A DNA stretch of 64,000 nucleotides from Lama guanicoe (lineage: Eukaryota): contig MU053557.1 in assembly GCA_013239625.1 (NCBI GenBank), positions 3,564,123 to 3,628,122 of the forward strand, in the 5' to 3' direction. The translations under genes were made by a program, and so were the position numbers. The notes beneath the pieces were generated by a model. It was given only the letters and a program-made list of their open reading frames with translations. It searched no databases and had not been told where the DNA came from. Positions within the stretch are counted from its first letter, which is position 1; every line of letters begins with the position of its first letter. Shown here in pieces: positions 8,681 to 52,312 of the stretch.

Positions 8681-9072
8681 GGAGGTGTGTGAGAGAGACC
8701 CACCCTACCAGAGCTTCTGTCTGTATCTTCATCTGTTTGTTGTACAACTTGAAATCACTCTTGCATATTGGTGATAGAGTAAAACAAAACAAACAACAAA
8801 AAAAAACCCGGTACGAAGTCAGTACAGGATTTGGTGCACTGCCAAGAAATACCAGTCTGAGATCTCCATTGACCTAGAGAGATTTTGAAGATTTCCTAGT
8901 GGCTTTACTATGCATGTTTCCTCTCCCTACCCTGTTACCTCTTTTCCCACCCTCCAATAAGCAGATCCCTCTCTGCAGCAGCAGGGACACCTGTTTTTGG
9001 AAACCAAGAATCTCTTGCAACTTCATAAAATTTTTCTTTTAGGATCCCTTCACGCTGTCATCTCACTGTGAC

Positions 9073-10090
9073 ATTGCATTAAATGTGTGGATGGCCTTGG
9101 GCAGTATGGCGATATTAACCATGCTGATTCTTCCAATCTGAGAACATGGGATCTCTTTCCATTTCTTTAAGTCATCTGTAATTTCCTTAATCAGTGTTTC
9201 TTAGTTCTCCATGTATGAGTCTTTCACCTCCTTGGTCAGATTTATTCCTAAGTATTTTATTGCTTTGGATGCAATTTTAAAAGAGATTGTTTATTTACTT
9301 TCTTTTCCTGCTAATTTATGTTAGTGTAAAGAAATGCAACTGATTTTTGTATGTTAATCTTGTATCCTGCTACCTTGCTGAATTCTTTTATCAGCTCTAG
9401 TAGTTTTTGTGTGGCGCTTTTAGGGTTTTCTATACATAGTATTAGATCATCCCCATATAGTGACAATTTCAACTGTTCTCTTCCAATTTGGATCCCTTTT
9501 ATTTCTTTTTGTTGCCTGATTGCTGTGGCTAGGACTTCCAAGCCTATGTTAATAGAATTGGGGAGAGTAGGCATCCTTGTCTTGTTCCAGATTTTAGTGG
9601 GAAGGCTTACACTTTTTCACTGTTGAATATTATGCTGACTGTGAGTTTGTCGTAAATAGCTTTTATTATGTTGAGATATGTTCCCTCTATACCCATATTG
9701 GTAAGAGTTTTTCTCATAAATTGGTGTTAAATTTTATCAAATGCTTTTTCTGCATCTATGGAGATAATTGTATGGTATTTGTCCTTTCTTTTGTTGATGT
9801 GATGTATCACATTGATTGATTTGTATATGTCGAACCATCTTTCTGTCCCTGGGATGAACCTAACTTGATCATGGTTATAATCTTTTGTATGTGTTGTTGG
9901 ATTCTGCTTGCTAATATTTTGTTGAGGATTTTTGCATCTATGTTCATCAATGATATTGGCCTATCATTTTTTTTTTTGCAGTGCCTTTTTCTGGTTTTAA
10001 TATCACAGTGATGGTGGCATCATAGAATGAGTTTGGGACTATTCCCTCCTCTTGACTCTTTTGGAACAGTTTGAGAAGGTTCAATATGAC
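9073..10090 (-). mobile_element. Internal LINE-1 ORF2 (RT) fragment
   Basis: [35 protein letters not shown] on -; no 3' UTR or poly(A). Confidence 0.9.
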
Positions 10091-11231
10091 CTCTGTAAGC
10101 ATTAGAATGAAAATGATCACTTGGCTGCTGTGAGGACAAAACTGAGGGGTCCAGGGTAGAAATAAGAAGCTTGTTAATTAGCTCTTGCAACTGATTGGAG
10201 AGACTTCGATGAGGGAATGTTGGTGCAGATGGAACCCTGAGGGGAGGATTCAAGAAAATACCAGGAGATGAGCTTGATAGGATGAGGTGATGAGGTGGAT
10301 ATGACTTGTCAGGGAAATGGAGGTTTCAGAATGACTCCCAGGTGTCTGACTAATATAAGAGGACGTGTGGTGGTGCCATTCAAGGAGATGGGGATATTGG
10401 CCTCTCCTGGCTCTTAGGATAAAACCAGTGCCTGTTCCCATGACACCCAGTGCATGATTTTACCTTTGCCTACCCATCCTGCCTCATCTCACATCCCTCT
10501 GTGCCTGTCCATGGGTTTCAGCCACAGGGATGCACTTTCAGTTCTTTGGAGAAATCAAATTCTCCTTGTCCTCAGGATATTTGCATATTCAGGAACCTCA
10601 ATCCAAAATATTCATGGCCAAGATGGGTTCTTCACAACTTCGAGTCCCAGCTTAAATGACACTTTAAGGGAGGGGGGAGGGGCAAATAGGAGTGGGGATG
10701 TAAGAGGTACAAACTATTATATATGAAATAAATAAGCTACAAGTATACACTATACAACACAGGGAATATAGCTAACATTTTATAATAAGTATAAATGGAG
10801 TATAATCTTTAAAATTGTGTATCAGTACATTGCACCCCTGAAACATATAATATAGTACGTCAAATACACATCAATAACAAATTTTTAAGTGTCTTCTGAA
10901 GTAGGGAATAGTCACGTGAAGCGTCTGGAAACACTATCAGATAAAGAACAGTTGATGAAAATGGAGACGTTCGAGTTAGAGACAAGGGGAGGGATACAAT
11001 GATACGTCTTACTGAAAATGCGAGTTCTCTTTATCAGAACAGGCTCTCTGGAGTTTATGACCCAAGGAAAAGATTATCTGGTTATCCCCTTCTGAACAGA
11101 GCCCCCCAAATGAAAACAGGACAAACTAAAATCACTTCATTGCTTTATTCATTCTCTATGGGGGTCACTACATTTGAAGAAGGAAGGAGAGCGCCATCCC
11201 CTCCCACCTCTGCTCCTGCTCTGCTCCGCTG

Positions 11232-11255
11232 TCACACCAGATACGAGAGGGCCTC
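11232..11255 (-). CDS. SCGB3A2: SCGB3A2 left copy, exon 3 coding part (EALSYLV*)
   Basis: Mirror of 33873-33896; AATAAA on - at 11144-11149. Confidence 0.94.
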   Translation of the reverse strand, partial: EALSYLV

Positions 11256-11653
11256 CTGAAAATCAAAAGGACAGTGGTAAAAACAACACCAGTTTACCTG
11301 TCATTAGCACCTTTCCAGAAACAGTCACTATCCTATTTCACCACCATGTCACTGACAAGGAAAGGGAAGCTCTGAGTGGTTAAGTCCCATCCAGAACCAC
11401 AGAGCTGGGAAGTGGCCCACATTTCACAACTAGAACACAGGTCTCTGTCCTTCCAAAATCCCTTCTACAAGTGTGGACACTGAGCTTTCCTTGAGATTCC
11501 AGGACATGGAAATTTTGTGTGAGGAGAGTCAGCAAAGGGGAAATACAGGTTCACAGATGAGGACAGGGTTGGGTGGGAGTCAGGGGAGAGGGTGGGCATT
11601 CAGGGTGACTAGGTCCTGCCCTTTGACAAGTTAGCCTCACAGGTCATAGTTAC

Positions 11654-11856
11654 CAGCAGTTTCTTCACGGAATTCGCAGCCTCCGGTCCCAGCTCATTCA
11701 CACATTTCCTCAGCCCGTCCAGAAGGTGCTCAACAGAAATGCCCAGAGTTTTCAGAAGTAGCTTTAATGGGCTCAAGCTGGGGAGAATTTTGTCCGCAGG
11801 TAAAGGTACAACATCGTTGACAGGAGCTGCCAAACCACTGAGGAGGAAGGCGGTGG
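11654..11856 (-). CDS. SCGB3A2: SCGB3A2 left copy, exon 2 (…RKCVNELGPEAANSVKKLL)
   Basis: Mirror of 33272-33474; intact splice sites; the only difference I see is codon 73 (GAG here, GGG in the right copy). Confidence 0.95.
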
Positions 11857-12940
11857 CTGTAGAGCAAAAGAGACCCCGCGTAAAACAGGCACTTCCAGCT
11901 CTGGTGACCTCAGCTGGTCCACGCTGTCCATCAGTGGCTCCATCCCAGCCCCACTCATCTCGATCTTCCAGGAAAACTTCTGCTTCGGGACCTTTGTACG
12001 TGCCATTCCAACTGTCTAGAACGTTGCTTCCCCAGATAGCTACACATCTTTCTTCCTCCCATCATTCGGTCTCTCCTCCAAAGTTACCTTCTCAGGGACG
12101 TACCTACAAGAGCATCACCTGTCACCCTCAGTCTCCCTCTTCTCCCACCAATACCTGAAATATCAAATCTTTGGTTATTTCTGTATTTTGCTTCATTCTG
12201 CCACTGGAATGTAGGCCCATGAGAATAAGCAATTAATGTTTTATTCACACTGTACTACATGCCTAGATCAGACCCTGGCATGTGGGAAGCACCAGATAGA
12301 TACTGGAGACTGACCGGCCAGGGATGTACTTTGCCCACGGCTGTCTTCACGGCCCACAAGTTTGAAGCCAAAGGGGAGAGAATATAATGAACCTCCACTT
12401 GCAGACAAGTCTTAGCCCCCCTGCCAGACTGTAAGAACCTTGAGAACAATATTCACATCTGATTCAGGTCTGAATCGGCCAGTTTCTATCCAGTGCCCAA
12501 CAGGTTATAGCCATTCAGTCGATATCCACTGATTGTGTGAACAGATACATGTGGCCATGTCTCAAGAGAACCACCTTGGCAACCTGACTAGAGATGAGAG
12601 CAAGAATGACTCCGTACAGTTACAGACGCATAAAGGAAAGAAGGTACAAAGTCAGATCCGGACTCAAAATTAAGAACAATTAACGGTGACCAGTGTTCAC
12701 TAATGAAGGGTTTGCTGACCCTCAGCGGGAGCTGGGTAACTTCTTGTGTAGGAGCCACCAGGGAGACCTGTACTGGGTTAGAGCTTGGAGCTGGGAGCGG
12801 GGGCAGCTGAAATCCCTTCCAACCTTACCATTCTGTGGTTCTAAACTCCCTCCACCATGTTCCACTGGGAGCCTAGGCTTCCTAGTTGTGTTCCTGTTAA
12901 CAGAAAAGTCGAGAAATACCATATGTTCCCGGCTACTTAC

Positions 12941-12995
12941 CAGAGTAACTGCAAATGCTGATGGTCACCAGCAGGAACACAGTGACCAGCTTCAT
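12941..12995 (-). CDS. SCGB3A2: SCGB3A2 left (duplicate) copy, coding exon 1
   Basis: Reverse complement of 32133-32187 (coordinate sum 45128); intact ATG and gtaagt donor. Confidence 0.95.
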
Positions 12996-13117
12996 GGTAC
13001 GTTACCTGGGATATTTACCTGCAGTTTAAAATTAAACTGGAAAACCTAATGAACCCACCGAGCCAGTGGTTCCACTTGCTGTACCAAGTGTGGCAGCTGC
13101 TCTTGCACACACACATA

Positions 13118-13250
13118 TTTATACGCCCATCGAGGGCCTGAGTTTCAATCACAACCACTAGATTTGCCTCAGGGAAGAGGAGCGTGAAGGTCACGTGTCC
13201 TCACTAAACAAATTGGAGTTTTTTTCCGCATTCCCTCATGTTCCCATGAG
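13118..13250 (-). promoter_or_regulatory. SCGB3A2: Proximal promoter of left SCGB3A2 (TATAAA on - at 13118-13123)
   Basis: TATA conserved; sequence upstream of about 13155 diverges from the right copy. Confidence 0.65.
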
Positions 13251-13429
13251 AAACAAAGCCCTAACTTACAGCACTCTCAAGGAACTTTGGTACAAGCTCT
13301 TCCCCAGAGACACTGATGGGAAGCAAAGAGGGCTGATACCTTCTCCTAGAAGGCCCTAGGATGACCCTTTTTGTAAGCCCAAGTTCTACAGTTACTTGGG
13401 GTATCTGCTGCAACAAAGAATGAAACTTT

Positions 13430-14186
13430 CATGTACCCCAGTGCTCATGGCAGCAGTATTTACAATAGCCAACACATAGAAGCAAACTAAATGCTTATCG
13501 ACTGATGATTGGATAAAGAAGATGTAGTACATATATATAACGGAAATCTACTCAGCCAGAAAAAAGAAAGAAAGAATGGCATTGGCAGTAACATCAGTAG
13601 GTCTAGGGATTGTCATACTAAGTGCAGTAATCAGAAAAAGACATATATATCACTTATATGTGGAATTAATAATGATAGAAATGAACTTTTTACAAAACAG
13701 AAACAGTAAACAACAAGGTTCTTAGCACAAGGAAATATATTCATATCTTGTAGTAATCTACAATATGAAAATGAAATATGAAATGAATACACGTATGAAT
13801 ACATACACAGGTATGACAGAAACATTATGCCGTACACCAGAAATTGGCACAACATTGTAAACTGACTGTGCTTCAATTAAAAAAAAACTACAACAGAAAC
13901 AGACTTCACATACATAAAAAAACAAATTTATGGTCACCAATGGGGAAAGGTGGGGGGAGGGGTAAATTAGGAGGTTGGGATTAGCAGATACACATTACTA
14001 TACATAAAATAGATAAACAACAAAGCCCTAGTGTATGGCACAGGCACTACATTTAATGTCTTGTAATAAACTACCATGAAAACGGATACGAAAAAGAGCA
14101 AATTATATGTGTGTAACTGAATCACTCTGCTATATACTGGAAACTAACACAACATTGTAAATCAACTATACTACAATTTAAAAAAA
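13430..14186 (+). mobile_element. L1 3' fragment with nested younger L1 3' end (13707-13891, TSD aacagaaacag)
   Basis: L1 ORF2-end/3' UTR motifs; 11-bp direct repeat at 13696-13706 and 13892-13902. Confidence 0.85.
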
Positions 14187-14699
14187 GTAGGAAGGAATGT
14201 TGAAGGGGAGAAATAGGGATCAGGGTCCAGGTGGGTCCCAGTCCCAGCTCCGAGCTCCCTGACCAAATGGCACTGCTGGCCCAGCACCCCAACCTCTGAA
14301 GACATGCTCGGAACATTCTGAGGAAGATCCATCGAGGTGCCAGGCCAGGAGCTGGGGCCACGCTGGGCGGTGGGCTGTTGTTAAGAGGATTTAATGTAAT
14401 TCTGTAGACGGAGGATGAAACTGCACCAAACCAAGATTAACACATGCTAAGTGTCACCTGCTGCTAATTTCTATACATCACCACGTTGTAACTGCCTTTC
14501 CTTGATTTTTCTGCTGCTTTATAAACGGCATGAAGGAGCTCACGTATCACCCCCACACGCAGACCATCCTGCCACTTCTACCGCTTTCTCTGCTAGAGGT
14601 GGGGCTTCGATTTTTCTGGAGAATGATCACCTCCAAGGACGCTGATGTGCCAAAACTCTCAGGGGCCAAGGTTGGGTGGTAAAGTGGTGGTGAGCTGAC

Positions 14700-15415
14700 A
14701 CCACCCTTCATTTCTGTGCTGTGACCTTTTTAAGGGACCAAACCAGCACTGCCCTCCCTCTGCTCGTCGTCCCCACTTTGCTCTCCGATCCTTTCCGATC
14801 CTCTCCATGCACGACCCCCGCTCTGCTCTGCCTAGAGGAAGCTGACTTTCCCAAACTGTGGTTTCCAGACCTCCTTGCCAACTGCGATCTGGTTAGGATC
14901 CACTCGTGGGAGGCCCTGGTAAACGATCAGATGGGAGAGGAGACAGAAGGAAACATCAGGGGAGTCTCCCTCCGCCTGCTTCAGGAGACACCTCGGGCAG
15001 TGACTGCCGCTTCTCCACGGCTCCAGCTCCTTCCAGAACAGCCCTTCGTCTGCGGTCCCACACCAGCCAGGCAGCCCCACCTTTGTTCGGCTCCTACTGC
15101 TCAATAAATATTTGTTAAACGGCTAATTCAGTTTCAACTCCTGATTATAAATTTAATCGCCACAAAAATTCATTTGAAAAGCACATTGAAAAATTAATTT
15201 CCCCCCTGCTCCTGGGCCCCACCTGCTCTCCCTGTCCTCCCAGCCAAGAAAAAGTAGCAGCTGCTTGCATTTCCCATCTCAAGCTGGACGCACCTGTCCC
15301 CTGGTTGCTGTCACTGAACTTCTAGCACCTTGTAAATGATCCTTCAGGTTAAATTCTTCCCATTTGATCATCTGGTATGGTTTTTGAGTTTCTGGCTGGC
15401 CTGGACTCTAACACC
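14700..15415. mobile_element. Old LTR-like element (ERVL/LTR33-like), mirrored at ~29275-29990
   Basis: Pattern recognition only; family assignment uncertain. Confidence 0.45.
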
Positions 15416-16198
15416 TACGAAAATATACTAAAGTAAAGCATCCTAAAATATAGTAGCGCTGTTGGTAAAAACAGATCTTTCAGTTTTGAAACACAGGCTC
15501 TCTCTCACAAGTGCCACGTTGTGAGTCCACGAGGGGCTGGACCAAGATCCAAGAGAAACAGAGGGACACACACAGACACACGCTTCTCCCTTTCAACCCC
15601 AGAGAGTGTGGTACTGGTTCCAGCTTGTCTGCTGGGCCCAGAGGTGAGTTTTTTCCCAGGAAGCCCCTCAGAGCCCCGTGCTAAGAGAGTTCTGGTGGGC
15701 CCACATAGTAGCCGGCCACACATGCAGTCTTGACCAAAGCCTAGTAGTAAACAGCTAGAACCTCATCCACACAAAACAAACACACACACACACACACAGA
15801 TTCTCTCTCTGTCTCATTCACACACACAAATGTCCACATGCTTACACATATGTGAACGGTCATGTGTCCACATGCACAGACACAGACCACACATAACCAT
15901 CAAGCATTACTGCTTTCATTCTTTTTGTTCCACAAATATTTACTGAGCCTCTGCTGTGTGCCAGGCACTGTCAGGAACGAAGACTAGAGCCGTAAACCAG
16001 ACAAGAATTTCTTGCTTCTGTGGGGCTGACAGTGTAATGGGATAAACAGACAAGAAACAGGTAAACCAAGAAAACAAGCAGTGGTAAGAGCTATGAAGAA
16101 GCAAATCGGGTGCTTTGATGGTGGAGAACAAGAGGATGGGGGGACAGTCAGCCTTGCAAAGAGACTCAGACGTGGCTACTTCCACACCTCCTGCCACC

Positions 16199-16697
16199 TG
16201 AATTTAAGTATTGACATTTTGTGGCCTTGCTGACCCTGGAGGGACTTCCCCTCTCAGGGCTAGCTAATCCTAGAGATGGCAAATGCTCACCTGGGAGTGC
16301 ACCTGCCGTATGCAAACCAACCATCCCCACACTGCCAAGCACCTCCTCTAGGGAGCCCTTACACTAGGCCACTGTCCATCTGCCTCAGTCACCCCCAGGG
16401 CCCGGTACCAGACACCTCGGGACGGTCCCCACACCCGAGCCCAGTAGAATTATTCAAACAAGACTATTCTAGTCCTGTTTACCCGGTCTTCCCATCCCGT
16501 CCCATGGAAACCACAGTAAAGTCTCCTGCCCACACCCCTACCCCACCCTCCTGACAAACCTGGTGCTTCCACGTGGCCCTACCGCCCTGGGGTGTGATGT
16601 GCCCTGTTCTTGGGATCTGGGAGTATAACAGACTGTCTTTACAACGACACTCATCTCCTGGTCTGCTGGCCTGAGTAATGAAACATACTTTAAAACA
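16199..16697 (+). mobile_element. ERV-type solo LTR, mirrored at ~27993-28491
   Basis: TG...CA termini, about 500 bp, octamer ATGCAAAC and MER-LTR-like text; family not determined. Confidence 0.55.
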
Positions 16698-17122
16698 GCC
16701 ATCTAGCCTTTCCTTGTGCCTTTGTTATGCTACTGACACTGTCTTTCTTTGCAGCATACTTATTTGTATTAGTGTCTTCTTTTCCTGGACTAATTTGCAT
16801 ACATCTCAAGGGGGTCTGTCCTGTTCATGTTTGGATGCTAACAGAGAGTCCTACATACTTGATAATATTATTAGGAACTACCAACCGGTGCCGGGCATAC
16901 ACTTTGCATATGGTTTCATACTTCATGCTCATCAAATGCCTGATGATAAGAGCCTTTATCCCATTTTATAAATAAGGAGTATGAAGCTGGAAACAACAAA
17001 TTAATTACCAAGGTCATTTAGATAATAAATTTGTGTCCTTTCTTTTCTGATTTTTTTCCTTGACCTTTAAACACTTAATTGATATGCATTTTTAGTAAAC
17101 ATTTGTTAAATAAATTAATTCA

Positions 17123-27100: not shown

Positions 27101-30100
27101 GAGAAGACAGTGATGCGCGAGTATGACGTTTCTAATGTGACGTCTCCGGAACTGTCTCTTTTTGAGCCAGAAGGAACAGTATGAGATGAGCTCTCAGGCT
27201 GATTCTTTCTTTTTCTGTCTATGCCTTGTATCTACATTCAGCTGGCTTCTTTAGAACTGTCATTCTCCTCACAGAAACAAAAAGACTGACTTGTTTCTAC
27301 CAGCTGTCTTTAATATAACAAAAACGAGGCAGGAGACATGACTGCTTTGTTCCTGCTGTAGTCCCAGAATCCCCCAGAGAGCTGGGTACACCAAACTTGC
27401 TCAGTAAATATTTGTTAAACGGCTAATTCAATTTCAGCTCCTGATTATAGATTTAATTGCCACAAAAATTCATTCGAAAAGCACATTGAAAAATTAATTT
27501 AGAAAGACTGGCACTCATTTCCTTTTCATTTCATTTCTTTTCATGAATTAATTTATTTCCCAAATGCTTACTGGAAATACATATCAATTAACTGTTTAAA
27601 GAAATACAAATCAGCAAAAAAGGACTTTGACAATTTGAAAGGATTTAAATTCTGGCCACATTCATTAATTTGAGTGATCTTGGCAATTAATTTATTGCTT
27701 CCAGCTTCATACTCCTTATTTATAAAATGGGATAAAGGCTCTTATCATCAGGCATTTGATGAGCATGAAGTGGAAACCATATGCAAAGTGTACGCCCGGC
27801 ACCGGTTGGTAGTTCCTAATAATATTATCAAGTATGTAGGACTCTCTGTTAGCATCCAAACATGAACAGGACAGACCCCCTTGAGATGTATGCAAATTAG
27901 TCCAGGAAAAGAAGACACTAATACAAATAAGTATGCTGCAAAGAAAGACAGTGTCAGTAGCATAACAAAGGCACAAGGAAAGGCTAGATGGCTGTTTTAA
28001 AGTATGTTTCATTACTCAGGCCAGCAGACCAGGAGATGAGTGTCGTTGTAAAGACAGTCTGTTATACTCCCAGATCCCAAGAACAGGGCACATCACACCC
28101 CAGGGCGGTAGGGCCACGTGGAAGCACCAGGTTTGTCAGGAGGGTGGGGTAGGGGTATGGGCAGGAGACTTTACTGTGGTTTCCATGGGACGGGATGGGA
28201 AGACCGGGTAAACAGGACTAGAATAGTCTTGTTTGAATAATTCTACTGGGCTCGGGTGTGGGGACTGTCCCGAGGTGTCTGGTACCAGGCCCTGGGGGTG
28301 ACTGAGGCAGATGGACAGTGGCCTAGTGTAAGGGCTCCCTAGAGGAGGTGCTTGGCAGTGTGGGGATGGTTGGTTTGCATACGGCAGGTGCACTCCCAGG
28401 TGAGCATTTGCCATCTCTAGGATTAGCTAGCCCTGAGAGGGGAAGTCCCTCCAGGGTCAGCAAGGCCACAAAATGTCAATACTTAAATTCAGGTGGCAGG
28501 AGGTGTGGAAGTAGCCACGTCTGAGTCTCTTTGCAAGGCTGACTGTCCCCCCATCCTCTTGTTCTCCACCATCAAAGCACCCGATTTGCTTCTTCATAGC
28601 TCTTACCACTGCTTGTTTTCTTGGTTTACCTGTTTCTTGTCTGTTTATCCCATTACACTGTCAGCCCCACAGAAGCAAGAAATTCTTGTCTGGTTTACGG
28701 CTCTAGTCTTCGTTCCTGACAGTGCCTGGCACACAGCAGAGGCTCAGTAAATATTTGTGGAACAAAAAGAATGAAAGCAGTAATGCTTGATGGTTATGTG
28801 TGGTCTGTGTCTGTGCATGTGGACACATGACCGTTCACATATGTGTAAGCATGTGGACATTTGTGTGTGTGAATGAGACAGAGAGAGAATCTGTGTGTGT
28901 GTGTGTGTGTTTGTTTTGTGTGGATGAGGTTCTAGCTGTTTACTACTAGGCTTTGGTCAAGACTGCATGTGTGGCCGGCTACTATGTGGGCCCACCAGAA
29001 CTCTCTTAGCACGGGGCTCTGAGGGGCTTCCTGGGAAAAAACTCACCTCTGGGCCCAGCAGACAAGCTGGAACCAGTACCACACTCTCTGGGGTTGAAAG
29101 GGAGAAGCGTGTGTCTGTGTGTGTCCCTCTGTTTCTCTTGGATCTTGGTCCAGCCCCTCGTGGACTCACAACGTGGCACTTGTGAGAGAGAGCCTGTGTT
29201 TCAAAACTGAAAGATCTGTTTTTACCAACAGCGCTACTATATTTTAGGATGCTTTACTTTAGTATGTTTTCGTAGGTGTTAGAGTCCAGGCCAGCCAGAA
29301 ACTCAAAAACCATACCAGATGATCAAATGGGAAGAATTTAACCTGAAGGATCATTTACAAGGTGCTAGAAGTTCAGTGACAGCAACCAGGGGACAGGTGC
29401 GTCCAGCCTGAGATGGGAAATGCAAGCAGCTGCTACTTTTTCTTGGCTGGGAGGACAGGGAGAGCAGGTGGGGCCCAGGAGCAGGGGGGAAATTAATTTT
29501 TCAATGTGCTTTTCAAATGAATTTTTGTGGCGATTAAATTTATAATCAGGAGTTGAAACTGAATTAGCCGTTTAACAAATATTTATTGAGCAGTAGGAGC
29601 CGAACAAAGGTGGGGCTGCCTGGCTGGTGTGGGACCGCAGACGAAGGGCTGTTCTGGAAGGAGCTGGAGCCGTGGAGAAGCGGCAGTCACTGCCCGAGGT
29701 GTCTCCTGAAGCAGGCGGAGGGAGACTCCCCTGATGTTTCCTTCTGTCTCCTCTCCCATCTGATCGTTTACCAGGGCCTCCCACGAGTGGATCCTAACCA
29801 GATCGCAGTTGGCAAGGAGGTCTGGAAACCACAGTTTGGGAAAGTCAGCTTCCTCTAGGCAGAGCAGAGCGGGGGTCGTGCATGGAGAGGATCGGAAAGG
29901 ATCGGAGAGCAAAGTGGGGACGACGAGCAGAGGGAGGGCAGTGCTGGTTTGGTCCCTTAAAAAGGTCACAGCACAGAAATGAAGGGTGGTGTCAGCTCAC
30001 CACCACTTTACCACCCAACCTTGGCCCCTGAGAGTTTTGGCACATCAGCGTCCTTGGAGGTGATCATTCTCCAGAAAAATCGAAGCCCCACCTCTAGCAG

Positions 30101-30503
30101 AGAAAGCGGTAGAAGTGGCAGGATGGTCTGCGTGTGGGGGTGATACGTGAGCTCCTTCATGCCGTTTATAAAGCAGCAGAAAAATCAAGGAAAGGCAGTT
30201 ACAACGTGGTGATGTATAGAAATTAGCAGCAGGTGACACTTAGCATGTGTTAATCTTGGTTTGGTGCAGTTTCATCCTCCGTCTACAGAATTACATTAAA
30301 TCCTCTTAACAACAGCCCACCGCCCAGCGTGGCCCCAGCTCCTGGCCTGGCACCTCGATGGATCTTCCTCAGAATGTTCCGAGCATGTCTTCAGAGGTTG
30401 GGGTGCTGGGCCAGCAGTGCCATTTGGTCAGGGAGCTCGGAGCTGGGACTGGGACCCACCTGGACCCTGATCCCTATTTCTCCCCTTCAACATTCCTTCC
30501 TAC

Positions 30504-31070
30504 TTTTTTTAAATTGTAGTATAGTTGATTTACAATGTTGTGTTAGTTTCCAGTATATAGCAGAGTGATTCAGTTACACACATATAATTTGCTCTTTTTC
30601 GTATCCGTTTTCATGGTAGTTTATTACAAGACATTAAATGTAGTGCCTGTGCCATACACTAGGGCTTTGTTGTTTATCTATTTTATGTATAGTAATGTGT
30701 ATCTGCTAATCCCAACCTCCTAATTTACCCCTCCCCCCACCCTTCCCCATTGGTGACCATAAGTTTGTTTTCTGTGTCTGTAAGTCACTTTCTGTTTTGT
30801 AAATTAGTTTATTTGTATAATTTTTTTTTAGATTTCACATATGATACATATTTTTCTTTCTCTGTCTGACTTACTTCACTTAATATGAGAATCTCTATGT
30901 CCATTCATATTGCTACAATGGCTTTATTTCATTCTTTTTAATGGGTGAGTAGGATTCCATTGTATAAATATACCACATGTTCTTTATCCATTCATCTGTC
31001 CATGGAAATTTAAGGTGCTTCCGTGTCTTGGCTATTGTATATAGTTCTGCTATGAATAGTGGGATGCATT
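30504..31070 (-). mobile_element. L1 3' fragment, paralogous position to 13430-14186, lacking the nested insert
   Basis: Same 5' junction (atgaaacttt) and same 3' junction as the left-arm element. Confidence 0.85.
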
Positions 31071-31879
31071 AAAGTTTCATTTTTTTCTCTTTTTCTTGCA
31101 CCAGATACCCCAAGGGCTTTCAAAAAGGGTCATCCTGGGGTCCCAAGGCTGTTTTCAAAAGGGCAGCCTTGTAAGCAGAATGCTCCTGTGGCCAGCACAG
31201 TATATCTTTTGCATAATGCAAGGGATTGGACTACAGAAGGGTTCTGAAATTCATATTTTGAGATTATAGAGATGAGGTCTTGTTAAAAAAAAATCTATTT
31301 TCTTAGCGTCACACACCTTTGGGACCATTTTGCCACTAGCCGTTAAATGACCTGTTTTTGATGAGGAGAACAATACTATAGATTAAAAAGGTCAAATTCA
31401 AATTACACAGAGTCAATATTGAATCCCACGTTTTCAAAAAGAAATTTTGATTTTAGATCCTGACCCTGTTATTCTATATGAGAACATGGCCCTGGGTTTT
31501 CCCCAAATAAATGGGAGACACTAGAAAAGGTAAAAGTCTTGCTATAGTAGATGTAGGAGCAGGGATGGGGTGGGCAGAGGTCAGTTCCAGAGAGACATGG
31601 CACCAAATGCCGTTAAGCTGAGTCTGTATTGTTTCAGGGCTGAAGGGGCCTCGGGACTGATCCTACAACTGGGCAGCCTGTCAGGTTGTGTGATTCTCCA
31701 AACTTTCAATGAATTGGAAGCACCAGAATTTTCATTCCCTTTAATCCCAATATAACCTTCCCTTCTTTTCAGAATTCTTCCAAAAGAAGGCCTTAATGCT
31801 CTTTGCTTCCCACCATCATCTCTTGGGAAGAGCTTGTGCCAGAGGTCCTTGAGAGTGCTGTAAGTTAGGGCTTTATTTC

Positions 31880-32010
31880 TCATGAGAACATGAGGGAATG
31901 CGGAAAAAAACACCAATTTGTTTAGTGAGAAACGTGACCTTCACGCTCTTCAACTCTGGGGCGAGTCAAGTGGTTGTGATTGAAACTCAGGCCCTCGATG
32001 GGTGTATAAA
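31880..32010 (+). promoter_or_regulatory. SCGB3A2: Proximal promoter of right SCGB3A2: TATAAA 32005-32010, NKX2-type TCAAGTG 31966-31972, FOX-like TGTTTAG near 31920
   Basis: Motifs read directly. SCGB3A2 is an established NKX2-1 (TTF-1) target, but use of these exact sites is inferred. Confidence 0.7.
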
Positions 32011-32132
32011 TATGTGTGTGTGCAAGAGCAGCTGCCACACTTGGTACAGCAAGTGGAACCACTGGCTCGGTGGGTTCACTAGGTTTTCCAGTTTAATTTT
32101 AAACTGCAGGTAAATATCCCAGGTAACGTACC

Positions 32133-32187
32133 ATGAAGCTGGTCACTGTGTTCCTGCTGGTGACCATCAGCATTTGCAGTTACTCTG
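32133..32187 (+). CDS. SCGB3A2: Secretoglobin 3A2 (UGRP1), right copy, coding exon 1 (signal peptide MKLVTVFLLVTISICSYS)
   Basis: ATG at 32133 in ccATGa context; hydrophobic signal peptide; phase-1 donor G|gtaagt at 32187/32188; matches the known SCGB3A2 N-terminus. Confidence 0.96.
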
Positions 32188-33271
32188 GTAAGTAGCCGGG
32201 AACATATGGTATTTCTCGACTTTTCTGTTAACAGGAACACAACTAGGAAGCCTAGGCTCCCAGTGGAACATGGTGGAGGGAGTTTAGAACCACAGAATGG
32301 TAAGGTTGGAAGGGATTTCAGCTGCCCCCGCTCCCAGCTCCAAGCTCTAACCCAGTACAGGTCTCCCTGGTGGCTCCTACACAAGAAGTTACCCAGCTCC
32401 CGCTGAGGGTCAGCAAACCCTTCATTAGTGAACACTGGTCACCGTTAATTGTTCTTAATTTTGAGTCCGGATCTGACTTTGTACCTTCTTTCCTTTATGC
32501 GTCTGTAACTGTACGGAGTCATTCTTGCTCTCATCTCTAGTCAGGTTGCCAAGGTGGTTCTCTTGAGACATGGCCACATGTATCTGTTCACACAATCAGT
32601 GGATATCGACTGAATGGCTATAACCTGTTGGGCACTGGATAGAAACTGGCCGATTCAGACCTGAATCAGATGTGAATATTGTTCTCAAGGTTCTTACAGT
32701 CTGGCAGGGGGGCTAAGACTTGTCTGCAAGTGGAGGTTCATTATATTCTCTCCCCTTTGGCTTCAAACTTGTGGGCCGTGAAGACAGCCGTGGGCAAAGT
32801 ACATCCCTGGCCGGTCAGTCTCCAGTATCTATCTGGTGCTTCCCACATGCCAGGGTCTGATCTAGGCATGTAGTACAGTGTGAATAAAACATTAATTGCT
32901 TATTCTCATGGGCCTACATTCCAGTGGCAGAATGAAGCAAAATACAGAAATAACCAAAGATTTGATATTTCAGGTATTGGTGGGAGAAGAGGGAGACTGA
33001 GGGTGACAGGTGATGCTCTTGTAGGTACGTCCCTGAGAAGGTAACTTTGGAGGAGAGACCGAATGATGGGAGGAAGAAAGATGTGTAGCTATCTGGGGAA
33101 GCAACGTTCTAGACAGTTGGAATGGCACGTACAAAGGTCCCGAAGCAGAAGTTTTCCTGGAAGATCGAGATGAGTGGGGCTGGGATGGAGCCACTGATGG
33201 ACAGCGTGGACCAGCTGAGGTCACCAGAGCTGGAAGTGCCTGTTTTACGCGGGGTCTCTTTTGCTCTACAG

Positions 33272-33474
33272 CCACCGCCTTCCTCCTCAGTGGTTTGGCA
33301 GCTCCTGTCAACGATGTTGTACCTTTACCTGCGGACAAAATTCTCCCCAGCTTGAGCCCATTAAAGCTACTTCTGAAAACTCTGGGCATTTCTGTTGAGC
33401 ACCTTCTGGACGGGCTGAGGAAATGTGTGAATGGGCTGGGACCGGAGGCTGCGAATTCCGTGAAGAAACTGCTG
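33272..33474 (+). CDS. SCGB3A2: SCGB3A2 right copy, exon 2 (ATAFLLSGLAAPVNDVVPLPADKILPSLSPLKLLLKTLGISVEHLLDGLRKCVNGLGPEAANSVKKLL)
   Basis: Acceptor tctcttttgctctacag, 203-nt open exon, donor gtaact at 33475; contains the SCGB3A signature PLKLLLKTLGISVEHL..GLRKCV. Confidence 0.97.
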
Positions 33475-33872
33475 GTAACTATGACCTGTGAGGCTAACTT
33501 GTCAAAGGGCAGGACCTAGTCACCCTGAATGCCCACCCTCTCCCCTGACTCCCACCCAACCCTGTCCTCATCTGTGAACCTGTATTTCCCCTTTGCTGAC
33601 TCTCCTCACACAAAATTTCCATGTCCTGGAATCTCAAGGAAAGCTCAGTGTCCACACTTGTAGAAGGGATTTTGGAAGGACAGAGACCTGTGTTCTAGTT
33701 GTGAAATGTGGGCCACTTCCCAGCTCTGTGGTTCTGGATGGGACTTAACCACTCAGAGCTTCCCTTTCCTTGTCAGTGACATGGTGGTGAAATAGGATAG
33801 TGACTGTTTCTGGAAAGGTGCTAATGACAGGTAAACTGGTGTTGTTTTTACCACTGTCCTTTTGATTTTCAG

Positions 33873-33896
33873 GAGGCCCTCTCGTATCTGGTGTGA
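33873..33896 (+). CDS. SCGB3A2: SCGB3A2 right copy, exon 3 coding part (EALSYLV*)
   Basis: Acceptor tttgattttcag; GAG GCC CTC TCG TAT CTG GTG TGA; joined CDS 55+203+24=282 nt = 93 aa + stop. Confidence 0.95.
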   Translation, partial: EALSYLV

Positions 33897-33978
33897 CAGC
33901 GGAGCAGAGCAGGAGCAGAGGTGGGAGGGGATGGCGCTCTCCTTCCTTCTTCAAATGTAGTGACCCCCATAGAGAATG

Positions 33979-33984
33979 AATAAA
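33979..33984 (+). terminator. SCGB3A2: Polyadenylation signal of right SCGB3A2
   Basis: AATAAA about 80 nt after the stop codon. Confidence 0.8.
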
Positions 33985-36900
33985 GCAATGAAGTGATTTT
34001 AGTTTGTCCTGTTTTCATTTGGGGGGCTCTGTTCAGAAGGGGATAACCAGATAATCTTTTCCTTGGGTCATAAACTCCAGAGAGCCTGTTCTGATAAAGA
34101 GAACTCGCATTTTCAGTAGGATGTATCATTCTTTTCCTCCCCTTGTCTCTAACTCGAACGTCTCCATTTTCATCAACTGTTCTTTATCTGACATTGTTTC
34201 CAAACTCCTCACATGCCTATTCCCCTACTTCAGAAGACATTTAAAAATGTTTTAATTGACATATAGTTGATATATATAATATGTTTCAGGGGTGCAATGT
34301 ACTGATACACAATTTTAAAGATTATACTCCATTTATACTTATTATAAAATGTTAGCTATATTCCCTGTGTTGTATAGTGTATACTTGTAGCTTATTTATT
34401 TCATGCATAATAGTTTGTATCTCTTAGGGCCCTACCCCTATGTTGCCCTGCCCACCTTCCCTCCCCTAACTGGTAACCCCTAGTTTGTTCTCCACATCTG
34501 TGAGTCTGTTTCTTTTTTGTTCTGTTCACTAGTTGGTTGTATTTTTTAGATTCCTCATATAAGTGATATCATACATTATTTGTTTTTCTCTGTCTGACTT
34601 GTTAGACCTTGCCTACAGAAATGTTAAAACATGAAATAGAATAGAATTTTCAAAGTATTGTCTGACTAAGTTCTTCCAAACCTCACTGGTTCGGAGTCTA
34701 CATCCCCAGTATGCAGGTTCCTGTTAAGTTTGCTTTTGTATTAGGGCCACTACAAGGCTTCAGAGACCCTGCCACCAGTCATTCTCTGGCAAATGGGCTC
34801 TGAAACGTCCTTTCCCTTCCATGCTACCGTTTACAGTGATTCCAGGATTATCTTTTCCAAGACATAATTATAGCCCTATACGACCCCATAGAAGATAGTT
34901 TTCAAGCTCCTCAGCATGGCATCCGAGGTCTTTCCGATCTGGCCTTTGCTTCCATGTCTAGCCTCATCAGTACTCCTTTCTTCACGTGTGCTCCAGCTCT
35001 AGCCGTGCTGAAAAGATAACTAAATCTATTTGCTGCTAATACTTTCATGCCTTAATGAACAATCGAGTTTCTTCCCCCCTGGAAAGTCGTCCCGGGTCTG
35101 CCTCCAACCTGGGGCTTGTTCCAGTCTTGGACTATTTGTCCTGAGGTCCATTCCCTGTGGTCCCCGTGCTCAGCTCCATGTTGGGCAAAGGGAGGGGACA
35201 TGATGCTGATCCCTCAGGTTTCTTTCCTCAGGTTCCCAGGCCAGTTGAGCTTTGGGCTGTGAGGCCCAGGCAGGAGATAGGAGGTTGGAAAAGGGGCAAG
35301 GCCAGAGTGTGGCCTCCTTTCTGTCTCCCTTTGGGAGAAGTCTCTGGAAGTGCTTGCACTATGTCTGAGCCGCCAAGCCCTGCTAGATGGATCTGTGTGG
35401 GTTGCAGCTTTTGCCAGGTGACTCCATTCCCCGGGCTCTGCTTGTACCATCTCCTTGTTGTCTCTCCAGCTGAGGTTCTAGGGATTTCCTGCCATCATCA
35501 GCTTCTAGGTTGCCTCACCATCACCTGTTTGATTTTTTAGGTCTCCCATTGTCTGTCAGATCAGTTCTGTGCATTACATTCTCTCTGTTTCAAGCATCTC
35601 TTTCCTGGTTATTTCCTGACTAACATAATTTTAACTGCCGTCTCCTCTGTGAAGATTGTCTTGATTCCGGCCATTTCTTAACCTGCATATTTGTTGACAA
35701 CTAGAATTGTTGAACTTTGTGTAACTTCTGTTTTCCTTCCTCATTTTACCTGAGTCTAGTAAGAATAGACTAGCTTACCTAGCCGTGGTGATAAATAAGT
35801 GCACATCTCAGGGCTTACATCCACAGCATTTTAATATTTTTTCTCGCACTATATGGCCACCTGAGTTGGCTGTCACTCTCCCCCATAGCCTGAATTCTGT
35901 GACCCAGAGCTGATGGGACAGTCTTTGGAGCATTTCTGATCATCATGGCACATAGGAAAGAGTGCTTTGTGCACCATCGGCTAATTTTCAAAGCTTCCCC
36001 TTGGAAGTGACCCTGTCCTGTTTCATTGACCTAAGCAAGTCACATGACATGCCTAACTCACTTAGGAAGGGCATGTTCAATTCTACAGGAAGAGAGGATG
36101 CCAAGTACGGGTTAGCATAATATAATTTACTACCTTACTTGACTACTTCAGGGTAATCGCCCCCTGAGACACCTCCACTCTGCTTGTAATTTTCAGCTCC
36201 TTTGGATCATCTTTCCTCCCGCTTCTAGTATCGACCTGACTACTTGACTCTTGTTTTTTGGTTTCTTTCAATGGCCCTTATTTTCCTGACTTCCTCTGAA
36301 TGTTGATGCCTCCAAAGAAAGATTCTAAACTTGATTCCTCTTCTCTTTTGACACTGGGGGGTCTCATGCATTCCCGTAGCTGGCAATATAATCTCTGTGT
36401 AAATGTTAGCTATCTTGATTGTGGTGGTGGTTTCATGGGTGTATACATCTGTCAGAATTCATCAAACTGTACAACTGGAATATGTGTAGTGTACTGTACA
36501 GGAACCATACCAGAGTAAGGGTGTTCAGTCAATCAGTCAATCCATCAGGAAAAAATATATATAACCTCCATGTTAGGACCTCTACAATCTGTAGCTACAA
36601 CCTATAGCTTTTCTTTGAGAAGAGATTTAATTACCTGTAAGTCACTTCCAGCAGATGCCCTCTTTATAATGTTCAGCTCAGCAGACATTTATGTGGACTT
36701 CCCGTCTGTCCCTTAAAACACACTGATGTTCTCATTTCCTGTCTCGCTCTGTAGCACTGATTTCCTTGTTGCTTAGACTTGGGGATCATTCGAAGTACCC
36801 CCTCTTCTCAGCCTTACTTTCTAATTGCTGGGAAAGCCCTGTTGATGATAAGCCTTTTTCTTTGTATCGTATACGTTTTTTCATTATCTCGACTGCCACT

Positions 36901-37629
36901 GCTCTTCCCCAAACCTTGTCACCCCCAGCAGACTGCTGTGCCAGGCTCTGCATCCCAAAGCTGATCTTTTCCAGCCCTTCAGTTGCACCACTGGAAAAGC
37001 GGTTTCTTAAAATACAAGAGTCATTCCCCAGTTTCAAACTCTTTGATAGTTTTTTTAGTGCTGATTGAAAACAAGTCATACACTATTTTAAAGCAATAAA
37101 CATATTCATAACCCGTATTTAGACGTACTTATTTTCCGACTTACTGCAAAATCTCCTTTCCAGACTGTGGAATTAAATGGGTAGGGACCTGAACTTATTT
37201 GTATCTGTATCCTCAGCACATAGCACAGAGCCTGTAGGTAGGCAGCATTAGGGTTTGCGGTTATTGAATGGATGGATTTCTTTCTGTTAAGTTTTATCTT
37301 GTTAGGTTGATCCTTTTGTTCTTTCTCATCCATCACATTAGTAAGCTATTCATTACTATTTCTCCTAGCTTGCCGTGCTTTGCATATTTAAGAAGGATGA
37401 CTATGCCTTCATTCAAGGTGCTAAGTGGAGAAGACTGAGGAAAGAGTTCTGTGTCATCAAGCTTTGAGTAACAGATGTAATACGGCAATCTACTGGGGCT
37501 AGAGGTTTCTTTGTGGGGGAGTGTGTCAAAGGGACTGATTCAGTTAAGAAGGAATTAGAGGACGGACTATGTTGAGGAAAATAGGCAGAACCTGATGATA
37601 AACATTATGGCAGAAGCTGATAAAATTAC

Positions 37630-38650
37630 TTATGAAAGTGACGACAACAAATGCTGGCGAGGATATAGAAAAGTTGCATCATTCCGACATTGCTGGTGCA
37701 GATGTAAAATCTTACCGCTACTCTGGAAAAATACTTCGACTGTTTCTTAAAAAACTAAACAGGGAGCTACCATACAACCCGGCAATTGTAGTCCTAGGCA
37801 TAGATCCAGAGAAACCACATTTATGTTTATGCAAAGCCTGCATGCAAATGTTCATAGCAGTTTTATTTGTAATAATCAACACCTAGAAACCACCCAGTTG
37901 TCCTTGAATGGATGAACGGTTAAACAAACTGCTGTACATCTATCTATAGGATTGGAATACTAGCAGCAGTAAACAGAACGAACTCTTTTTTTTTTAATCT
38001 TTCCTCTGGTGAAAAGTAAATTTATTTATTTATTTATTTTTTTTTTCCTATATAAACATTTTTTATTGATTTGTAATAATTTTACAATGCTGTGTCAAAT
38101 TCCAGTGTAGAGTACAATTTTTCAGTTATACATGAACATACCTACATTCATTGTCACATTCTCTTTCGCTGTGAGCCACCACGAGATCCTGTATATATTT
38201 CCCTGTGCTACACAGTACAATCTTGTTTATTCTACATTTTGGAGAATGAACTATTGATACACACAGCAACCTGGGTGAATCTTCAGAGAATTATGCTACA
38301 TGAAAAAAAGTCAGTCCCCAAATTCCATTTGTATAAGCATAAACATTCTCAAAGGGACAAAATTATGGAAAAGGAAAACAGATTTGTGAGTTCCAGAAGC
38401 TAAGAAAGGGGCAGGAGTATGAGGAAGCCAGTGTGCTATCTCAGGGCTTCCTGAGAGATGTTTATGGTGATGGAAATGTTTTGTATTTTATCTGTATCGA
38501 TGTCTATATACTGGGTTTAATATTGTAGCAGAGTTTTGCAAGATGTTGCTGTTTGAGGAAATAGTAGAGAATATCAAGATCTCTCTAGTATTTGTTACAA
38601 CCATGTGTGACTCTGTGATTATCTCAACATAAAAGTTTTACTTAAAAAAA
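37630..38650 (+). mobile_element. Old L1 3' fragment with nested antisense young L1 3' end (~37986-38240)
   Basis: L1 ORF2-end remnants; nested element flanked by agaacgaact / agaatgaact. Confidence 0.8.
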
Positions 38651-41600
38651 TTGTGAAGATAATCAGAATATAGAAATATATATTATATGCAATTTAATTA
38701 ATATAAGTTACATAACTGTGATATATAATATGTATTTCTAATTATATATGTATAACTGTGTATATAATTCTCTGTGTGTATAATTACATATGTAACTTTC
38801 ATTCCTTTCTCCCATAAATCCCACGGACTAGAAGAAACCCATGAACAGAGCTACAGGATTTTTCAAAACATTTTCTAACATTTTTTAAAGGCATGCATAT
38901 ATGAATAAGCCATATTTTATTTTAACTGACATCTATGTAAATATTTAAATCATTCCTAGTATATTTTTGTTATTATAAAGAGTTCTACAGTAAACATCCA
39001 TAGATTTACATTTATTTCTGTATTTCATTCTTTCTTTTTTCAGGATGGATTTAAGAGCTGTTTTTTTAATCTGTGTTTTTTTAATTCAATTTTCAATTTT
39101 ATTTATTTATTTATTTATTATTTATTATTTATTAATTAATTAATTTATTTATTTTTAATAGACTTTATTTTTTTTAGAGCAGTTTCAGGTTTACAGCAGA
39201 ATTGAGCAGAAAATACAGAGTCCCCACCCACACATATATACTCCCCTACCCTCAGCATCCCTCATCAGTGTGGCATATTTGGTACAATCAGTGAACCAAC
39301 ATGGGCACATTATCATCAACCAAAGTCCATATTTTACATTAGGGTTCACTCTTGATGTTGTACATTTTTTTTTGTATTTATTTCTTCAGAAAAATCTTGT
39401 GAGTAGAATTGCTAGGCCAAGAATTATTTAGTGTTTAAAATTTTGATTACTGACAAATTTCCATTTAAAGGAGCAGTTGGGATATGAGGTCATTGAGATC
39501 AGAGAAGAGTCATTTCCAAAGATGGATTAGGGACCCAAGACAGTGCTTAGGATGTGGTCGTTGCCTGATCACATTCCCTCCATATCCAGTGAGAACATCT
39601 GCACCATGTCTGTGGCTCCATCACCAGTCATGACTATTTTCTAAAAATTGTATTTTTCCTTTAATAGTTTAATAACTTTTCCTTTCCCACCAGATTTGGC
39701 TGTTGCCTGCATCTCATCAAAACCTGCATATTCACCATTAAAGTAGCATTTCAGCCTATTGGCAAATACATTGGTTGAAGGGATGTTGAGCTATGAAGTT
39801 CTACAGTGCTCCCAAAGCCACCAGACATTAGGAAAAGCTGAACATTTCGCTCGAGTAGGTGACCTACTAGCTCCCTTATGCCGAGGGTCAGTGTGGGAGG
39901 TGCTTTGCTATCAGCTGTTTGCACCTGTTCCCTGGAGGAATAGATGAGAGCTAAGCACCGAGAACCTGAGAAAGCGATAAATTCCTTTTTTGGCTTGATA
40001 TGTTAGAGGGTCTGGAGATGTAATGTATGAATCCTAATATTTCTGGCCTCCATGTTTAAGTCAAGTAATACGAATGAACAGGTCAGTAAGTAAAACTTAT
40101 TTGCTATGGTTTTTTAATTTTTGGAAAAGAACCAGTTGAAAAGCTTACAGGCTGATTAACAGACAGCAGGGAGCGCTCATAGGCTGTTAGCAGTGTTAAA
40201 GAAGACATTTTATTTTTATATCTATTCAAGATCTATAATAAGAAATCTCAGCACCTTCTATTGTGTTAAAAATTTCACTGGGAAACACAAATAATGAAAA
40301 TTATTTGATGTTCCTCCTTTCTATTAAGTACCTCTGGCTTTATTTTGAGCATTTTTGTACAGTGCATTCTTTGCTCTGCCACTGGCTAGGTTTGTGTCTT
40401 TGTCAAATGAGAACTTTTTCCTGATTAAGTAACAGTAACCACTAATATGACTAAAAGTCACAGTAATGGTTGTTGGTTATTAATTATATTCTCTATATAT
40501 TTTTAACTCAAATATGGTGGTGATTGAATATTGATATCTTTGCCAAAAATTGATAAACAAAATGAACAAGGCCCCACAGATTTTGCAGTGTAAAGACACA
40601 GAAATTGTGCAAGTCAGCAGGTAAATAGATGACAAATTATGATCAGGACAATAAAAGAGGAGAATAGGATTTTAAGAATGGTAATAGTGACAAGTTCCAT
40701 GTTTTATTTTGAGTGGTCAAGAAAGTCTTCTTTGGAAGTGTCATCTAAATTGGGACTTGAGGTTGTGAAGAACCCATCTGGGTCAATGAATATTCTTGAC
40801 CCAGGTTCCTGAATATGCAAATATCCTGAGGACAAGGAGAACTTGGCTTCCACAAAGAACCAAAAGAGTATTTGTGTGGCTAAAATCCATGGGCAGGCTC
40901 AGAGGGATGTGAGATGAGGGAGGATGGGTAGGCAAAGGTGAAACCATGCACTGGGTGTCATGGGAACAGGCACTGGTTTTTTCCTAAGAGCCAGGAGAGT
41001 CCTAGACAGCTTTGTGTACAATATCCCCATCTCTAAGAATGGCACCACCACACATCCAGTTATATTAGTCAGACACCTGGGGGTCATTCTGAAACCTTCA
41101 TTTCCCTGACACATCATATCCACCTCATCACCTCATCCTACCAAGCTCACCTCCTGCTATTTTCTTGAATCCTCCCCTGGGGCTCCATATGCACCAACAC
41201 TCCCTCATCCAAGTCTCTCAAATCTCTTGCAACAGCTTTCTAGCAGGCTTCCTGCTTCTACTCTGGACCCCTCAGTCTGGTCCTCACAGCAGCCAAGTGA
41301 TCATTCTCAATCTAATGCTTAAAACCTTTTGGTGTGGCTTTCCACTATTCTTGGAGTTAGGAAGGAAGTCCTGACCACGCCTACGAGGACCTGGAGGCCT
41401 AGCACTTGCTTTCCTCCCCAGCCCTCATTCGTTCCCCAGCCGCCTTGACCTTCAGGCACTGATGAAGCCTGATACAGGGCTTTTGTTAATGCTGTCCAGT
41501 CTTAACTGCTTCCTCTTCATTTACTTCTCCTGAATTTATTTTCATTACCTCCTTGTCATTTTTTTCCCAGATCACAGATCAAGTCTCACGCTCTTAGGAA

Positions 41601-42689
41601 ATCCTCTTCCCTGTCGAAGTGAGATACTTAGTTAGAGCCTCAAATAGAATTATGTTCCCTCCTTCCTGAGCATGTCTCTCAAAAATAATTATATACTTAA
41701 GTATGACTAATACCTGGAGCAGAGTAACATTCAATAAGTGTCTTATGATCAAATGAGTGAGTCACATGAAGTAACATGCACCCATTAGATGATCCATTTT
41801 CTAGATATTCTCAAAGCTGTTTTATTGAAAGAAAGGATAGGAGATGCATTAAGTTCCCTCCAGTACTGACGCCATGGTAGGGACTTTGGGACTGGGGACA
41901 GAGTGATGCTGTGGACCGAGTCCTCAGGCTGCTGCCTCAGGGCAGCAGAGTTGTGTTGGAGGTTAGAACAACCTCCCACTCAGCCTCTATCAGCTCTCAT
42001 ATCTCAGGCATGGTGTTGATTAGCTTCCCTGAGCCTCAGTTTCCTCACCTGTCATGTGGAGAAAATAATGCCAGACCAGGTGATTTCAACTGTCCTGCAA
42101 TTATAAGGTCACAGTGAGATGACAGTGTGAAGGGATCCTAAACGAAAAACCCTATGAAGATGCGAGAGATTCTCGATTTCTAAAAACAGGTGTCCCTGCT
42201 GCTGCAGAGACAGATCTTATCAGAGGGTGGGAAGAGAGGTAACAAAGGGTAGGGAGAGGAAACATGCATAGTAAAGCCATTGGGAAATCTTTAAAATCTC
42301 TCTAGGTCGATGGAGATCTCAGATTGGTATTTCTTGAAAGTGCACCAAATCCTGTACTGACTTGGTACCGGCTTTTTTGTTGTTGTTTGTTTTGTTTTGT
42401 TTTGCTCTATTACCAACATGCAAGAATGATTTCAAGTTGTACAAGAAACAGATGAAGATACAGACAGAAGCTCTGATAGGGCGGGTCTCTCTCACATAGG
42501 GAGGACACTGAGTTTTTACTCATAGTCAGTCTATTTCCCAGGCACAGATTAGGCACTCAGTGTCCAAAGAGAGATTTGGGGGTCACATTTGTCAGGGAGA
42601 AGCAGTCTGACGTCAGATGCTGAATATAATGGAAATCTGGTAACTTTCATTTAAGAGGATATGACGTTTAAAATCAGCACAGCCTTGAA

Positions 42690-52048: not shown

Positions 52049-52312
<264 letters not shown>

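Follow-up and report, generated by a model that had tools for sequence, protein, structure and literature searches.

The window (the whole 64-kb stretch of Lama guanicoe DNA analyzed here) harbors two copies of SCGB3A2 (secretoglobin 3A2, UGRP1), a copy count that applies within its 64 kb, and sequence comparison indicates that the locus is a camelid inverted duplication of this gene. The window protein carries the Pfam SCGB3A domain (PF20490, E=1e-23), its top protein match is an alpaca SCGB3A2-like protein (94%), and 112 of 112 candidate relatives passed, the named ones being SCGB3A2 or hypothetical. Each copy comprises three exons with phase 1 and phase 0 introns, GT-AG splice sites and the signal peptide on exon 1; coding exon 1 spans 55 nt and exon 2 spans 203 nt (Table 1). 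The left exon boundaries are the mirror of the right ones. The same exon layout is described for turtle Scgb3a (PMC11884772). Residue 11 and a 5′ UTR codon of the window agree with alpaca, unlike camels. The DUF4576 exon listed in Table 1 belongs to a gene that we take to be C5orf46-like, in line with human synteny.

Table 1. Features of the inverted SCGB3A2 duplication, ordered by position in the window.
Feature	Position	Strand	Remarks
Older homology	8688..9075		versus 42496-42105, 33/385 sites differ; outer end of the duplication
Older homology	10096..10664		versus 41321-40736, 68/568 sites differ
Outer diverged margin	10668..11009		342 bp, then junction
Left gene arm	11010..13159	-	SCGB3A2, A/B mosaic, E73; ATG 12995
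Left copy	TATA 13123-13118; coding exon 1 12995-12941; exon 2 11856-11654; exon 3 from 11255	-	
Left island	13160..13948		789 bp; apparently unconverted counterpart of 30742-31968; arm alignment
Left proximal promoter	13160..13330	-	20 differences in 170 sites versus 31799-31968
Old L1 3′ fragment	13410..13706	+	between the two large indels; counterpart 31082-30792
Left-only short L1 tail	13707..13888	+	~180 bp, poly(A)
Left inner arm	13949..16890		near-identical to 30741-27800; diverged margin on to 17122
Near full-length decayed L1	17123..24182	+	spacer, abuts left inner arm; by eye and similarity to L1 pieces of the window
Right inner arm	27800..30741		diverged margin on to 27544
Right island	30742..31968		1227 bp; arm alignment
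Right-only segment	31165..31798		~630 bp; arm alignment
Right proximal promoter	31799..31968	+	alpaca-B promoter type from 31898 on
TCAAGTG, putative NKX2-1-type site (CAAG core)	31966..31972	+	intact in right copy only
Right gene arm	31969..34118	+	SCGB3A2, A/B mosaic, G73; ATG 32133
Right copy	TATA 32005-32010; coding exon 1 32133-32187; exon 2 33272-33474; exon 3 from 33873; AATAAA 33979	+	
DUF4576 exon	52049..52198	-	neighbor downstream of right copy

The two copies lie in near-identical arms that are interrupted by a diverged island at the promoter. In global alignments, the gene arm (11010-13159 versus 34118-31969) differs at 3 of 2150 sites, namely 11694, 13049 and 13125, and the inner arm (13950-16890 versus 30740-27800) differs at 5 of 2941. 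Identity between the paralogs thus far exceeds what the age of the duplication would leave: the arms are 0.14-0.17% diverged, versus 9-13% in the margins and 23% in the L1 core. The few residual arm differences look fresh, as 3 of 8 are CpG-type versus 11 of 159 in the margins (p=0.02). The differences at codon 73 and in the 5′ UTR (13049/32079), which an earlier note on this DNA had picked out, are real by alignment, and its island coordinates are correct to within 5 bp. Near-identity, seen there to stop about 35 bp upstream of the TATA box (13155/31973), gives way to a first island difference at 13160/31968, 37 bp upstream of TATAAA; identity, seen to resume at ~13950/30740, runs from 13949/30741 after a last difference at 13948/30742. 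The described shift of the mirror coordinate sum from 45128 to 44690 is confirmed and amounts to a net 438 bp. The substitutions and large indels reported between these points likewise exist and are unevenly spread, the proximal 170 bp aligning at 88% and the large indels lying further out.

The island consists of four parts: the proximal promoter, the right-only segment, the old L1 fragment and the left-only L1 tail with its margin. The right-only ~630 bp have no repeat-like match elsewhere in the window and were likely deleted from the left copy, an outgroup-free reading. The old L1 fragment, located between two large indels ~380 bp apart, has the same 5′ junction in both copies, yet 63 of 278 sites differ (22.7%). 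This core is the most diverged part of the duplication (63/278 versus 161/1509 for promoter, margins and flanks, p=2e-7). Because the left core has only 8 derived columns in common with the right piece, its value as an age marker depends on the common junction by itself; the left core is equally close to the spacer L1 (0.757) and to the right piece (0.731). Alternatively, one L1 may have been partly replaced by another L1, which would account for the 23%. The left-only L1 tail is flanked by a 14-16 bp target-site-like duplication (13691-13706, 13889-13902), and distal to it lies a ~60-bp margin with 10 differences.

Diverged margins beside large heterology are found at all four arm ends (342, 171, 62 and 226 bp). 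Differences amount to 20 of 161 sites at 10846-11009 and 20 of 225 at 16891-17122. Beyond the outer margin, ~6.3 kb of right flank (34460-40736) have no left counterpart. A recent duplication was considered and rejected, with margins and flanks 9-13% diverged and both paralog types present in two genera. Inside the outer margin, otherwise 12% diverged, the patch 10700-10845 has 4 differences in 145 sites and is likely a younger, isolated conversion tract. A 1-kb internal L1 piece interrupts the left outer flank (9077-10095), and opposite to it ~780 bp of right flank (41321-42105) have no counterpart.

The island is no assembly invention, and both of its sides occur outside this assembly. Words sampled from 10900-14200 are present at shares of 0.86-0.92 in 14 of the 24 listed runs; these 14 carry 5 organism labels and come from 6 studies (5 without the study of the best run). 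Because the right copy alone would give an expected share of only 0.696, even the lowest of the 14 runs holds at least 44% of the left-island words. For the right side, the translation of one alpaca gene model extends through the proximal promoter and agrees with the right copy at 70 of 71 residues. In six runs that are RNA by record or by guess, the word shares are 0.10-0.19, and two of these runs are labeled reproductive-system RNA-Seq; shares this small are no evidence of tissue or of the expressed copy. An exact-pattern scan of metagenome contigs gave 0 matches.

SCGB3A2 is annotated as two distinct proteins, A (P0116, P0115) and B (P0157, P0020, P0120, P0155), in each of four relatives: alpaca, dromedary, Bactrian and wild camel. 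Both types occur in Vicugna and in Camelus, and the duplication is therefore older than the split between these genera. In exon 2, A and B are identical at 49 of 66 residues in alpaca and at 49-50 of 66 in camels; type A is identical at 67 of 67 between alpaca and camel. The only indel in the exon-2 A/B difference of the relatives is one codon long, and the maintenance of this difference despite so small an interruption suggests that selection opposes conversion at the locus. A tree of 14 exon-2 rows, with the two window copies left out as mosaics, places the six camelid rows in one group (98/96) and the four B rows in another (100/98). The branch lengths are 0.35 for B versus 0.063 for A, and A is closer than B to other mammals. 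The B changes are packed into mature residues 20-37, yet it is the right (B) promoter type that adjoins the DUF4576 gene in the window.

At residue 73, the B proteins have G in alpaca, wild camel and one Bactrian model, and E in dromedary and one Bactrian model; alpaca B has two A-type residues as well. The E73 of B proteins and the A-type residues of alpaca B are real short conversions. From E73, and by exclusion, we infer that the left locus encodes A in the relatives. Residue 11 is an alanine (A) in camel types A and B and a T in both alpaca proteins and four outgroups, a concerted change at one site and at the protein level only. Intron pieces, when translated, show no difference between paralogs or between genera (22/22 and 14/14 residues). 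Because these two observations come from other annotated assemblies, the arms are truly homogenized. The B proteins of two older alpaca accessions (P0157, P0159) are identical, as are their models reading through the promoter; either there is a further B locus, or that assembly contains a false duplication. A 2025 survey counts one SCGB3A for dromedary (PMC11884772, Table 1); in the supplement covered, neither two dromedary accessions nor the words "Vicugna" and "3A2" occur. The literature matches listed, drawn mainly from open-access papers, include none on a camelid SCGB3A2 duplication that encodes two different proteins.

In the window, both copies of exon 2 (11654-11856 and 33272-33474) are the same site-by-site mosaic of alpaca A and B, except at residue 73, where each has its own locus state. 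The mosaic is A at all 12 differing rows in residues 20-37, B at 39, A at 45, B at 54, A at 65 and B at 80, which makes at least 4 type switches within ~190 bp of exon 2. The two window copies are alike at 66 of 67 residues of this exon; the left one matches alpaca A at 64 of 67 and the right one alpaca B at 53 of 66. The earlier note had proposed a same-protein, different-promoter design. This reading does not hold for the family, in which the relatives carry two distinct proteins; the near-identical proteins appear to be an exception of this genome. Compared with the promoter island, the mosaic is the greater surprise. We rejected a simple inversion accompanied by an exon-2 crossover, as both copies carry the A block.

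The island is best explained, with a probability of about 0.6, as what remains unconverted of an old inverted duplication in camelids, sealed by indels. Arm-to-arm gene conversion likely keeps the flanking arms 99.8% identical, and the two large indels likely break pairing, so that each locus would keep its own promoter. Conversion tracts would pass along the arms but come to a halt 60-340 bp before any large heterology; one of the margins left in this way would be the proximal promoter, whose 20-bp mismatch cluster may now act as the local stop. The likely outcome is a right promoter with the NKX2-1-type site and a left promoter that has lost this site and ~630 bp. In the relatives, B would be driven by the right-type promoter, as is shown for alpaca, and A presumably by the left one; in this genome the A/B protein difference would have disappeared, both copies being the same mosaic. 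Conversion between duplicates is described as continuing until substitutions, transposon insertions or other large indels disrupt pairing (Fawcett and Innan, PMC3924837). Because a diverged margin lies beside heterology at every arm end, indel-blocked gene conversion suffices, and the proposal of the earlier note that the indels may block conversion tracts fits this four-end anatomy. Both promoters are of old age and specific to their locus. Against an account by indels only stands the position of the 8-in-20-bp cluster, 170 bp from the indel and on TCAAGTG, as expected for a selected peak.

The main competing explanation, a doubtful one, is that selection keeps the promoters apart, as in an opsin-type peak: converted promoters would be removed since the loci differ in the tissue or level of expression, and the indels would be secondary or favored as barriers. 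SCGB3A2 is airway-expressed (PMC4504078) and is described downstream of NKX2-1 (PMC5405786) and of C/EBP (PMC9575473); CAAG is the NKX2-1 core (bioRxiv 10.64898/2026.02.27.708450). Eight of the 20 promoter differences fall in the 20 bp beside the arm (P=0.003), the densest of the four arm ends. The first of the eight alters the only TCAAGTG in either proximal promoter (31966), the left counterpart of which is TCTAGTG (13162-13156). Selection would also agree with the right promoter type being common to alpaca B and with the long B branch, its changes concentrated in a short stretch of the mature protein. However, divergence across the whole proximal promoter (20/170, 11.8%) is at background compared to 141/1339 in the four margins and flanks (Fisher p=0.60), and the alteration of 2 of the 4 CAAG cores on the left is at chance level (p=0.52). 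The TATA box, one further TCAAG and both C/EBP-like matches are common to the two copies. Motif patterns other than CAAG, such as the C/EBP-like one, are assumed to be valid for these promoters. Motif turnover, in which the left copy would have lost two CAAG cores and gained a CACGTG, is at chance level and was discarded as evidence. Mismatch clusters occur at two other arm ends too (5 in 20 bp at the outer end, P=0.05; P=0.74 and 1.0 at the remaining two), and tracts would tend to halt at such clusters anyway. Nor does the island resemble a selected peak free of barriers, having two large indels and a margin like those of the other three arm ends. The earlier note had also suggested that selection may remove converted promoters; for the promoter as a whole, background divergence and the presence of the indels speak against this, while the 20-bp cluster remains a candidate.

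The alpaca B model over 31898-32110 is right-type at 8 of the 9 residues that differ between left and right, with UTR site 32079 in the right state and 32003 in the left one. These right-copy states mean that the right locus carries the B promoter. All 7 of the differing residues inside the island are right-type (7/7), and the proximal promoters thus are not mosaic. Both processes may act together, a possibility that we consider quite unlikely: with a conservative A, a fast-evolving B and sealed promoters, conversion would just have made one mosaic protein, and selection would hold a 20-bp NKX2-1 switch.

It is improbable that the near-identity is in part an assembly product, with A and B reads pooled in consensus or polishing and the island marking where reads could not cross-map. 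This account fails for the island itself because both of its sides exist in other animals. The homogenized residue 11 and intron translations of other assemblies, the real short conversions among the B proteins and the non-mosaic proximal promoters also argue against it. The exon-2 mosaic alone is a different matter, and here an artefact comes close to even odds. Both copies change type repeatedly within a very short stretch; a real history would need, by our own count, ~4 separate conversions in both directions, whereas alpaca A and camel A remain fully identical; and the mosaic protein is absent among the 14 members of three camelid clusters. On the other hand, independent coin flips would bring about the agreement seen at 5 of 6 single sites with P=0.11. 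The word shares cannot separate the two, because fewer than 2% of the words are chimeric (rough count). On balance, the mosaic is somewhat more probably the result of real, recent two-way conversion than a consensus artefact.

The left copy has little chance of being a silent or weak passenger whose promoter has decayed and whose reading frame stays intact solely through conversion from its right counterpart. In favor of this reading, TCAAGTG, a second CAAG and the right-only segment are missing from the left promoter, an L1 is inserted there, and the alternatively spliced isoform models, among those seen, belong to the B gene. Against it, A, the inferred left product in the relatives, is distinct from B, so that conversion from B cannot have preserved it, and the left TATA box and splice sites are intact. 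Alternatively spliced isoform models need RNA support. The conservation of A in exon 2 between alpaca and camel is by itself a weak argument, because neighboring non-coding translations are also nearly identical between the genera.

Indel-blocked conversion as proposed here is a mechanism already known; the camelid A/B pair and the mosaic are apparently unreported. The closest parallel is provided by duplicates under concerted evolution that is ended locally by indels or transposons (Fawcett and Innan 2011, PMC3924837), in which near-identical blocks are likewise broken at large indels and L1 insertions. Stepwise ages, at this locus 0.2%, 9-13% and 23%, are a further common feature. Unlike in those cases, the diverged stretch is a promoter with a second homogenized block of 3 kb upstream, and the pair is small, likely autosomal and inverted, with a spacer of 10 kb. 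Divergence peaks maintained by selection are also described (PMC3924837). In the primate red/green opsin peak, introns are homogenized and a short coding stretch stays paralog-specific across species (PMC3924837), a pattern matched at the protein level by the exon-2 difference between A and B in alpaca and camel. However, the exon-2 peak is absent in this genome, and the island contains large indels, a feature on which the case of the opsins does not depend.

In ribosomal protein genes retained from the yeast whole-genome duplication, coding sequences are converted and regulatory sequences diverged (PMC3924837, PMC6993855), which is the pattern proposed in the earlier note. In contrast to the camelid pair, the yeast proteins are alike across species and expression divergence has been measured; in the camelid relatives the two proteins are distinct, and the non-coding DNA that flanks the island on either side appears converted too. 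Sex-chromosome palindromes also have inverted arms of >99% identity around a spacer (PMC8600007, PMC8981503), but the arms at this locus are interrupted blocks of 2-3 kb, likely autosomal, versus ~110 kb for P6. The HBB/HBD chimeras of laurasiatherians (PMC4041002) resemble the present case in that exchange between paralogs reshuffles promoter and coding types between neighbors. Those genes are arranged in tandem and gained HBB-like promoters, whereas here the promoters stay in place and the coding exon is the mosaic.

The locus is a compact test case: it offers four boundaries of conversion and three steps of age, and its paralog types are traceable in alpaca and three camels. A real mosaic would show the speed at which a protein difference maintained for long is lost with the promoter difference still in place; an artefactual one would be a warning that "identical" paralogs of such assemblies can mask two real proteins. 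Should A/B collapse and promoter selection indeed be combined, the locus would be a natural experiment separating selection on coding from selection on regulatory divergence among close species.

Base composition follows the same partition. The arms (11010-16890 and 27800-34118) have 48-49% GC and a CpG o/e of 0.30-0.33, and the islands and spacer have 37-42% GC and a CpG o/e of 0.17-0.26. GC-biased conversion is not significant: polarized W>S:S>W changes are 25:12 in the arm L1 piece versus 48:40 in the island pieces (p=0.23, outgroup-free polarization). Just outside the inner end of the right arm, 103 bp at 27399-27501 are identical at 97 of 103 positions to 15099-15201, in effect a portion of the right inner arm repeated in inverted orientation. 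This piece resembles a scar left by template switching at the junction of the duplication.
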